From assembly GCF_003334355.1 (NCBI RefSeq), contig NZ_QOWP01000005.1: a stretch of 64,000 bases of DNA; one strand, 5' to 3'. A model generated the notes under the pieces. It made no database searches, had not been told where the DNA came from, and saw nothing but the letters and a program-made list of their open reading frames with translations. A program made the translations under genes and the position numbers. Position 1 is the stretch's first letter; every line of letters starts with the position of its first letter. The DNA is from Escherichia coli (lineage in GTDB: Bacteria; Pseudomonadota; Gammaproteobacteria; Enterobacterales; Enterobacteriaceae). This document shows, one piece after another, positions 242 through 422 of the stretch.

Positions 242-422
242 GTCGGATGCGGCGTGAACGCCATATCCGCCCTGGGGTTCTGTACACTGTAGGCCTGATA
301 AGACGCATTACGCGTCGCATCAGGCAACGGCTGTCGGATGCGGCGTGAACGCCTTATCCGACCTACGGTTCTGTTCACTGTAGGCCTGATAAGACGCATT
401 ACGCGTCGCATCAGGCAACGGC
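242..422. repeat. Tandem duplication of a 90-91 bp unit (242-331 and 332-422), each unit carrying two REP-type palindromic units
   Basis: Two near-identical consecutive copies of tgtcggatgcggcgtgaacgcc..tatccg...gtaggcctgataagacgcattacgcgtcgcatcaggcaacggc, read directly from the sequence; a few mismatches between copies. Confidence 0.85.

Follow-up and report, generated by a model that had tools for sequence, protein, structure and literature searches.

The spacer between trmJ and iscR in this stretch of Escherichia coli DNA (the window, 64,000 nt at its full length) contains alternating Y and Z2 REP hairpins in two tandem 91-nt units, which very probably constitute a BIME-2 and the same element as the three-unit array of K-12. 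An element of this class at a catalogued K-12 locus is of an already known kind, since variability in BIME-2 number is established; both strain-variable copy number and a model of transposase-based amplification have been described (PMC3333891). The direct evidence on a role at this locus is at the DNA level only, and consists of DNA gyrase cleavage in the three-unit array of K-12.

Structure of the array and its assignment to BIME-2

Tandem Repeats Finder returned positions 241-425 as a single array with a period of 91, 2.0 copies, 94% matches, no indels and a score of 335, and a repeat finder placed two head-to-tail units at 241-331 and 332-422 with 95% identity. Both results bear out the first-pass annotation, which had described a tandem duplication of a 90-91-bp REP-pair unit; its start at 242 is one base off the start found here (241), which is immaterial. 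Unit 1 (“A”, 241-331, 91 nt) runs from a decayed Y REP through a 13-nt linker to a Z2 REP and a further linker, and is 100% identical to unit 1 of K-12 MG1655. Unit 2 (“B”, 332-422, 91 nt) has the same order of parts with an intact Y REP, and is 100% identical to units 2 and 3 of MG1655. The two units differ at five positions (263, 270, 274, 275 and 284). The trinucleotide TGT at 423-425, read directly from the sequence, forms the opening three nucleotides of a further unit, and because TGT also opens unit 1, an array of n units measures n x 91 + 3 nt.

The whole array sits in the gap from the trmJ stop codon to the iscR promoter, where it had been placed from the outset, and annotated E. coli genomes agree both with this position and with the names trmJ, iscR and suhB. 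The gene trmJ (425-1165, minus strand) encodes a tRNA Cm32/Um32 methyltransferase of 246 aa, and the array would form its 3' untranslated region; the stop codon occupies 425-427 on the minus strand, so that base 425 serves both as the last base of the array and as the final base of that codon. On the far side of trmJ the next gene is suhB (1284-2087, plus strand), and on the near side the 5' end of iscR (1-64, minus strand; start codon at 62-64) is cut by the edge of the window. Open reading frames that cross the array, such as 205-459 on the minus strand (84 aa) and 338-958 on the plus strand, were set aside as products of a mechanical listing over palindromic repeats; they also overlap trmJ.

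Each unit contains two REP palindromes in opposite orientation, Y and Z2, as had been proposed from first inspection. In unit 1, the Y REP (242-275, minus strand) is degenerate, with CTGG in place of the CTAC foot and the foot of the stem broken; its DNA fold of −7.3 kcal/mol (z −0.95) is no better than that of shuffled sequence, and its RNA fold on the minus strand is −14.9 kcal/mol. The Z2 REP of the same unit (289-325, plus strand) has a 5' GTAG foot and folds at −12.6 kcal/mol as DNA (z −5.8) and −22.3 kcal/mol as RNA. The Y REP of unit 2 (333-366, minus strand) is intact, with an RNA fold of −18.8 kcal/mol (z −4.5), and is one compensated base pair apart from the published Y consensus, GCCGGATGCGGCGTGAACGCCTTATCCGGCCTAC (PMC12306157). 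The Z2 REP of unit 2 (380-416, plus strand) is the first hairpin on the trmJ mRNA, its stem beginning 8 nt past the UAA stop. Between the CTAC and GTAG feet lies a short linker of 13 nt, GGTTCTGTACACT at 276-288 in unit 1 and GGTTCTGTTCACT at 367-379 in unit 2, and a second linker of 7 nt follows the Z2 REP in each unit.

Three of the four hairpins are palindromes of 30-40 nt with a GTAG/CTAC foot, as is characteristic of REPs, and their folds are significant against shuffles. The foot motif, CTTATCMGRCCTAC, occurs seven times in the 64-kb window where shuffles give an expectation of 0.00, and is carried by three of the four REPs of the array, the exception being the Y REP of unit 1. Parts of the megablast query matched a median of 9 places per genome, as expected of dispersed extragenic repeats. 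Read in the sense of trmJ, the RNA hairpins have energies of −22.3, −18.8, −22.3 and −14.9 kcal/mol, in that order. When the whole array is folded as one RNA, its two identical Z2 copies pair; this pairing was put down to the treatment of a palindromic repeat as a single molecule, and the local hairpins were preferred.

Two classes of BIME have been distinguished: BIME-1, in which z1 and y are combined in single copies with a long L linker, and BIME-2, in which z2 and y are combined in tandem with short linkers (PMC3333891). The array contains Y and Z2 in inverse orientation, as judged from the alignment to the Y consensus, from the Z2 stems and from the listing of the K-12 locus among “BIMEs2”; its linkers are short by length (13 nt and 7 nt, against the 35-nt linker of the BIME-1 elements of the window), and its tandem number varies between strains, with two units here and one, two or three across 5,426 genomes. 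The stems of the Z2 hairpins are those of the Rfam naRNA4 consensus, with different loops. Typing the Z motif as Z1, and with it the array as an “atypical BIME”, was excluded, the long stems matching the Z2 of Rfam naRNA4/REP325; the Z1 typing was dropped because the short Z form of the window occurs in BIME-1 contexts with the 35-nt L linker. The feature table of NC_000913.3 has no REP annotation in the iscR-trmJ spacer, and the typing was therefore taken from the sequence and from published papers. The array is not part of a REPtron, as its neighbors are iscR, trmJ, suhB and yfhR, none of them a Y1-transposase gene, and no tnpA-REP/RAYT gene is annotated in K-12 2,662,068-2,726,140, the interval collinear with the whole window.

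The Rfam family RF02564 (naRNA4) matches positions 292-363 on the minus strand with 72.2 bits against a gathering score of 59.5. This family is based on the REP325 unit, described as Y + linker + Z2 (PMC4550694). The match straddles the junction between units and is consequently present only in alleles with at least two of them, so that it restates the BIME-2 structure and nothing further; the number of matches per allele is n−1, that is, two for three units, one for two units and none for one unit or for the BoxC allele described below.

The closest counterpart is the BIME-2 between iscR and yfhQ (trmJ) of K-12 (Sutormin et al. 2019, PMC6379681, Table DS3), which shares locus, flanks and gene orientation with the array of the window. 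The K-12 array has the composition A-B-B in a spacer of 451 nt, whereas the window has A-B in a spacer of 360 nt, and their flanks are distinguished by one SNP, a T at 228 that is common to some one-unit strains. REP325 (yjdM-yjdN; six Y-Z2 repeats; naRNA1-6; RF02564) is likewise a BIME-2 array of Y and Z2 hairpins and is similarly placed, in the 3' untranslated region of the upstream gene of a tandem pair, but comprises twelve hairpins rather than four, has a tail-to-tail linker 6 nt longer and differs in the sequence of the Z2 loop. BIME-1 elements (RIB/RIP) belong to the same REP superfamily and, like the array, are extragenic and pair an inverted Y and Z; in contrast with its long-stem Z2 REPs, 13- and 7-nt linkers and tandem arrangement, they have a short Z1, a 35-nt L linker (TGCAATATATTGAATTTGCA...) and single copies.

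The window contains two such BIME-1 elements, at 21953-22056 and 52137-52246, each composed of Z1, a 35-nt L linker with TGCAATATATTGAATTTGCA, and Y; their short Z forms, at 21953-21987 and 52137-52171, are each paired with a Y REP across the 35-nt linker, and neither element differs from K-12 in copy number. A match to the Rfam sRNA ES036 (CssrF), at 52164-52206 on the minus strand, overlaps the second.

Unit number in E. coli and the repeat slot in other genera

It had been suggested at the first pass that unit number could differ between strains, and that finding two units in every strain would speak against this. A search of 5,426 complete E. coli genomes upheld the suggestion: arrays of 0, 1, 2 and 3 units were all found, and the iscR-trmJ spacer measures 269 or 270, 360 or 451 nt, or 300 nt when REP-free. 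One unit is present in 2,643 genomes and one or two units in 3,313, from which about 670 two-unit and about 681 three-unit genomes are estimated by subtraction rather than counted directly. The remaining allele, free of REPs and carrying a repeat with the BoxC/triplex motif, was found in 1,432 of the 5,426 genomes (26%). An even-step sample of 60 records agreed with the full counts, giving 28 one-unit, 8 two-unit, 15 REP-free and 8 three-unit rows. No array of more than three units was seen, the best 60 matches to a synthetic five-unit query being three-unit arrays without exception. The 360-nt, two-unit spacer of the window is shared by strains 203740 and PRO_A-1412; the 451-nt, three-unit spacer is represented by K-12 MG1655 (A-B-B) and strain WG5 (A-B'-B), the 269- or 270-nt, one-unit spacer by ST131, and the 300-nt spacer without units by strain 2013C-4225 and the O157:H7 genomes sampled.

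The compositions observed were A alone, B alone, A+B, A+B+B, A+B'+B and A with a C hybrid. Among close relatives, defined as strains 99.9-100% identical to the window over 8 kb (14000-22000), arrays of B alone (strain 81 and KMi029), of an A-like unit alone (AR_0369) and of A+B (PRO_A-1412) were found; in addition, ET729, from the 60-record sample, has A alone, and strain HS has A followed by a hybrid unit. The presence of different arrays in close relatives indicates that whole units have been lost, gained and recombined several times. Laboratory derivatives of K-12, B and C all have three units among the matches listed, and since these derivatives are constant at three, the locus is polymorphic between lineages rather than hypervariable.

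Apart from 91 nt absent here, the window is collinear with K-12 2,662,068-2,726,140 at 99.25% identity, with just one other indel in the 64 kb, of 18 nt, in another REP-like palindrome; both indels relative to K-12, of 91 nt and 18 nt, thus fall in REP-type palindromes. K-12 MG1655 lacks the 18 nt (AATGCCGGATGCGGCGTA) found at 29459-29476 of the window, where they make up the rest of a perfect hairpin of REP-like form, GCCGGATGCGGC..GCCGCATCCGGGC, in the interval from glmY to the 3' end of purL. Divergence from K-12 is a mosaic, with 0-3 mismatches per 2 kb (for example at 34-48 kb and 50-54 kb) alternating with 26-46 per 2 kb, a pattern typical of recombination tracts.

Copy number would change most simply if the 91-nt repeats mispaired by strand slippage or recombined unequally. 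Judging by the sequence, the TGT that bounds a unit on either side may have provided microhomology when the first duplication arose. A REP-associated transposase might also help unit number to change, and such transposases have been proposed to amplify BIMEs (PMC3333891).

In the REP-free allele, a segment of about 120 nt (480-600 of locus L004) takes the place of the region corresponding to 241-430 of the window. This allele, which occurs in the O157:H7 and O121 genomes sampled and in others, alters the last codons of trmJ, giving a TrmJ of 245 aa rather than 246, and carries CCCCTCACCCTAACCCTCTCCCCGAAGGGGCGAGGG, the reverse complement of the BoxC/PIT/TMECO intrastrand-triplex motif of type “A mm” (PMC4666352, Table 1). 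The BoxC element occupies the identical slot, from the trmJ stop codon to the iscR promoter, there and in Pseudocitrobacter, and like the array it is a GC-rich, structure-forming intergenic repeat tied to genomic instability. Unlike the array, it is not a REP: its sequence and fold, CCCTCGCCCC..GGGGAGAGGGTTAGGGTGAGGGG of type “A mm” (PMC4666352), are unrelated.

The order trmJ-iscR is kept in 76 of 81 Enterobacteriaceae loci, these 76 being the ones that reach far enough to include trmJ. The slot holds one intact Y-Z2 unit in E. albertii, a single REP in Salmonella, pairs of their own REP types in Enterobacter, Pseudescherichia and Superficieibacter, a BoxC-like element in Pseudocitrobacter and nothing in Yokenella. 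As far as sequence comparison can tell, the slot after trmJ repeatedly holds some structure-forming repeat and no particular one is required. Such recurrence (loci L013-L093) suggests either that repeats insert preferentially at this site or that a structured 3' end of trmJ is selected for; given that 26% of E. coli are REP-free and that the slot of Yokenella is empty, any function must be dispensable or replaceable.

Two of the loci compared deserve a remark of their own. A contig labeled Chryseobacterium sp. 18061 (L065) carries iscR-trmJ of the Enterobacteriaceae type, with a TrmJ 91% identical, and probably represents contamination or mislabeling. In Enterobacter sp. EA-1 (L046), the match to TrmJ ends at residue 126, 575 nt from iscR, which suggests that trmJ may be disrupted in this strain.

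Gyrase cleavage, the trmJ transcript and the iscR promoter

The first-pass annotation had given neither the class name BIME-2 nor the documented gyrase cleavage of the K-12 copy. In Topo-seq data from K-12 W3110, the locus is listed as “BIMEs2 2662088-2662353, 265 bp, iscR-yfhQ” (PMC6379681, Table DS3), with 3 cleavage sites in the presence of ciprofloxacin, 6 with rifampicin and ciprofloxacin, 4 with oxolinic acid and none with microcin B17. These sites, at 2662103, 2662193-5 and 2662285-6, form one cluster per unit with a 91-bp period, and those sites of K-12 units 2 and 3 that lie 91 bp apart have identical motif scores (PMC6379681). The same study reported a preference of gyrase for y REPs and their loops, and a BIME-2 signal that increases once transcription is blocked.

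Counted from the start of the interval, the K-12 sites fall at about position 16 of the unit, in the loop of the Y REP, with a mapping precision of about ±2 nt. With the K-12 clusters mapped to the Y-REP loops, the array can be regarded as a string of strong gyrase sites equal in number to its units. The corresponding cleavage position in the window, as predicted from the W3110 sites, is the loop GTGAAC of Y REP 1 at 254-259, with its equivalent in the loop of Y REP 2 at 345-350; by this analogy the two-unit allele would offer two gyrase sites, at about 254-259 and 345-350.

At the level of RNA, what can be said comes from the family. REPs in general can stabilize mRNA and be targets of REP-associated transposases, properties that the first-pass annotation had also named. 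On the trmJ transcript the four hairpins would form a structured 3' untranslated region without a U-tract, which would block 3'-to-5' exonucleases, and the array may partly attenuate read-through into the iscR promoter. It may also slow the termination of TrmJ translation, because the first stem begins 8 nt past the stop codon. REP325 stabilizes yjdM mRNA and attenuates read-through into yjdN in a partly Rho-dependent manner, the Rho-dependence being seen only with the full-length array (10.64898/2026.03.23.713779). According to a rule quoted in PMC12306157, a REP no more than 15 nt from the stop codon lowers translation, and stem-loops have been found to shield the 3' ends of Rho-terminated transcripts (PMC6061677).

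All four hairpins lack a T-run after them, and a terminator scan of 241-425 returned nothing terminator-like on the minus strand, so the array does not have the form of an intrinsic terminator. The Term-seq table of Adams et al., built on uniquely aligned reads only and blind inside REP repeats, has no 3' end called between MG1655 2,654,157 and 2,663,263 (PMC7815308). A literature search combining trmJ/yfhQ with iscR and REP or promoter yielded no transcript evidence for the array. Within trmJ itself, the supplement of PMC7815308 records a very abundant RNA 3' end at about position 1105 on the minus strand (MG1655 2,663,263), 60 nt inside the open reading frame; this holds for each of its three entries there, read scores exceed 200,000 in the rows considered, and the end is not discussed in the text of that paper. 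It points to early termination within trmJ or to a small RNA derived from the 5' part of the gene.

On the other side of the array, the iscR promoter region (147-198, minus strand) contains two sequences resembling IscR type-1 sites, TAGTTGACCAATTTACTCGGGAATG and AATACCCGACTAAATCAGTCAAGTA, which, to judge by published footprints, are probably IscR sites. The array begins 42 nt upstream of this region and of its distal IscR site-like sequence. In the explanation that we prefer, that of a BIME-2, the array would be dispensable for the regulation of iscR.

At 86-100 on the plus strand, antisense to the iscR 5' untranslated region, a GC hairpin runs into a stretch of T (GCCCCTGCCCGGGGTTTTTTATTGT). 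Most of the Enterobacteriaceae genera examined share the hairpin and, slightly altered, the T-run; the two Pseudescherichia-like loci, L018 and L028, keep the hairpin but have other sequence in place of the T-run. This element may belong to the structure of the iscR leader or may terminate antisense transcription.

Competing interpretations and significance

It is a serious possibility, if one to which we give less than equal weight, that the array is a neutral passenger, a selfish or junk repeat with no selected role whose gyrase cleavage and hairpins are incidental and whose number drifts by slippage. The presence/absence polymorphism, with an unrelated BoxC substitute in 1,432 of 5,426 genomes, and the empty slot of Yokenella fit such an origin, as do the decay of the Y REP of unit 1, which is expected under weak constraint, the commonness of every unit number from 1 to 3 and the location of the sole other K-12 indel in the 64 kb, likewise in a REP-like palindrome; harder to reconcile with it are the hairpin-forming repeats that most Enterobacteriaceae examined have at exactly this position after trmJ, and a gyrase cleavage in K-12 that is strong and increases when transcription is blocked. 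We are more tentative about a mainly RNA-level element that caps the trmJ message, brakes the termination of TrmJ translation and shields the IscR-controlled promoter, more units giving stronger attenuation. Strong hairpins without a U-tract that start 8 nt past the stop codon, within the 15 nt of the rule quoted in PMC12306157, would suit this role, REP325 behaves in this way (with Rho-dependence only for the full array), and trmJ and iscR are a tandem pair without an intrinsic terminator between them. The Term-seq table (PMC7815308), however, with unique reads only and thus blind to REP ends, calls no 3' end in the array, the strong 3' end that it lists 60 nt into trmJ suggests that few transcripts reach the array under the conditions of that study, and a quarter of strains have no REPs at all.

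Three further readings carry little weight. The match to RF02564 at 292-363 on the minus strand (72.2 bits, above 59.5) could be taken, with the 2015 model of naRNA4 (PMC4550694), to mean that the unit junction encodes an HU-binding, chromosome-condensing small RNA, but RF02564 in effect models a Y-linker-Z2 BIME-2 pair and the match restates that class, the one-unit and BoxC alleles that make up 75% of genomes have no match, and a 2026 preprint from the same school found REP325/naRNA4 to be without measurable compaction of the nucleoid (10.64898/2026.03.23.713779); we consider such a gene highly improbable. An upstream regulatory module of the iscR promoter, in which protein-binding or bending sites set iscR expression by their dosage, is very unlikely: the array lies only 42 nt from the distal IscR site-like sequence, and gyrase sites beside a supercoiling-sensitive promoter could matter, yet the L linker with which BIME-1 binds IHF is missing from it, a search for a binding-site motif found none, and genera share the promoter core (65-240) but freely replace the sequence beyond. 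Equally hard to credit is an error of assembly, by which a source strain of really three units or one was misread; short-read assemblies can collapse 91-nt tandem repeats, but about 670 complete genomes share the two-unit arrangement, several of them matching the window at 99.8% over 556 nt.

In itself, a BIME-2 at this site matters little: intergenic repeats of this kind are textbook knowledge, and the K-12 locus has been catalogued before. The 91-bp indel, one of only two differences in length from K-12 in 64 kb, provides a simple typing marker. Beyond this, the locus offers a natural allelic series (BoxC, 1, 2 and 3 units, with identical flanks) beside a well-studied promoter, and is a convenient place in which the number of REPs could be tested against gyrase recruitment, protection of mRNA 3' ends and read-through. 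It is conceivable, though we think it improbable, that unit number acts as a lineage-specific dial, the 0-, 1-, 2- and 3-unit and BoxC alleles setting different basal expression of iscRSUA or TrmJ by way of how many gyrase sites lie immediately before the IscR-controlled promoter, or how strongly read-through is attenuated there. If so, Fe-S cluster homeostasis would differ between the phylogroups of E. coli without any change in promoter or coding sequence.
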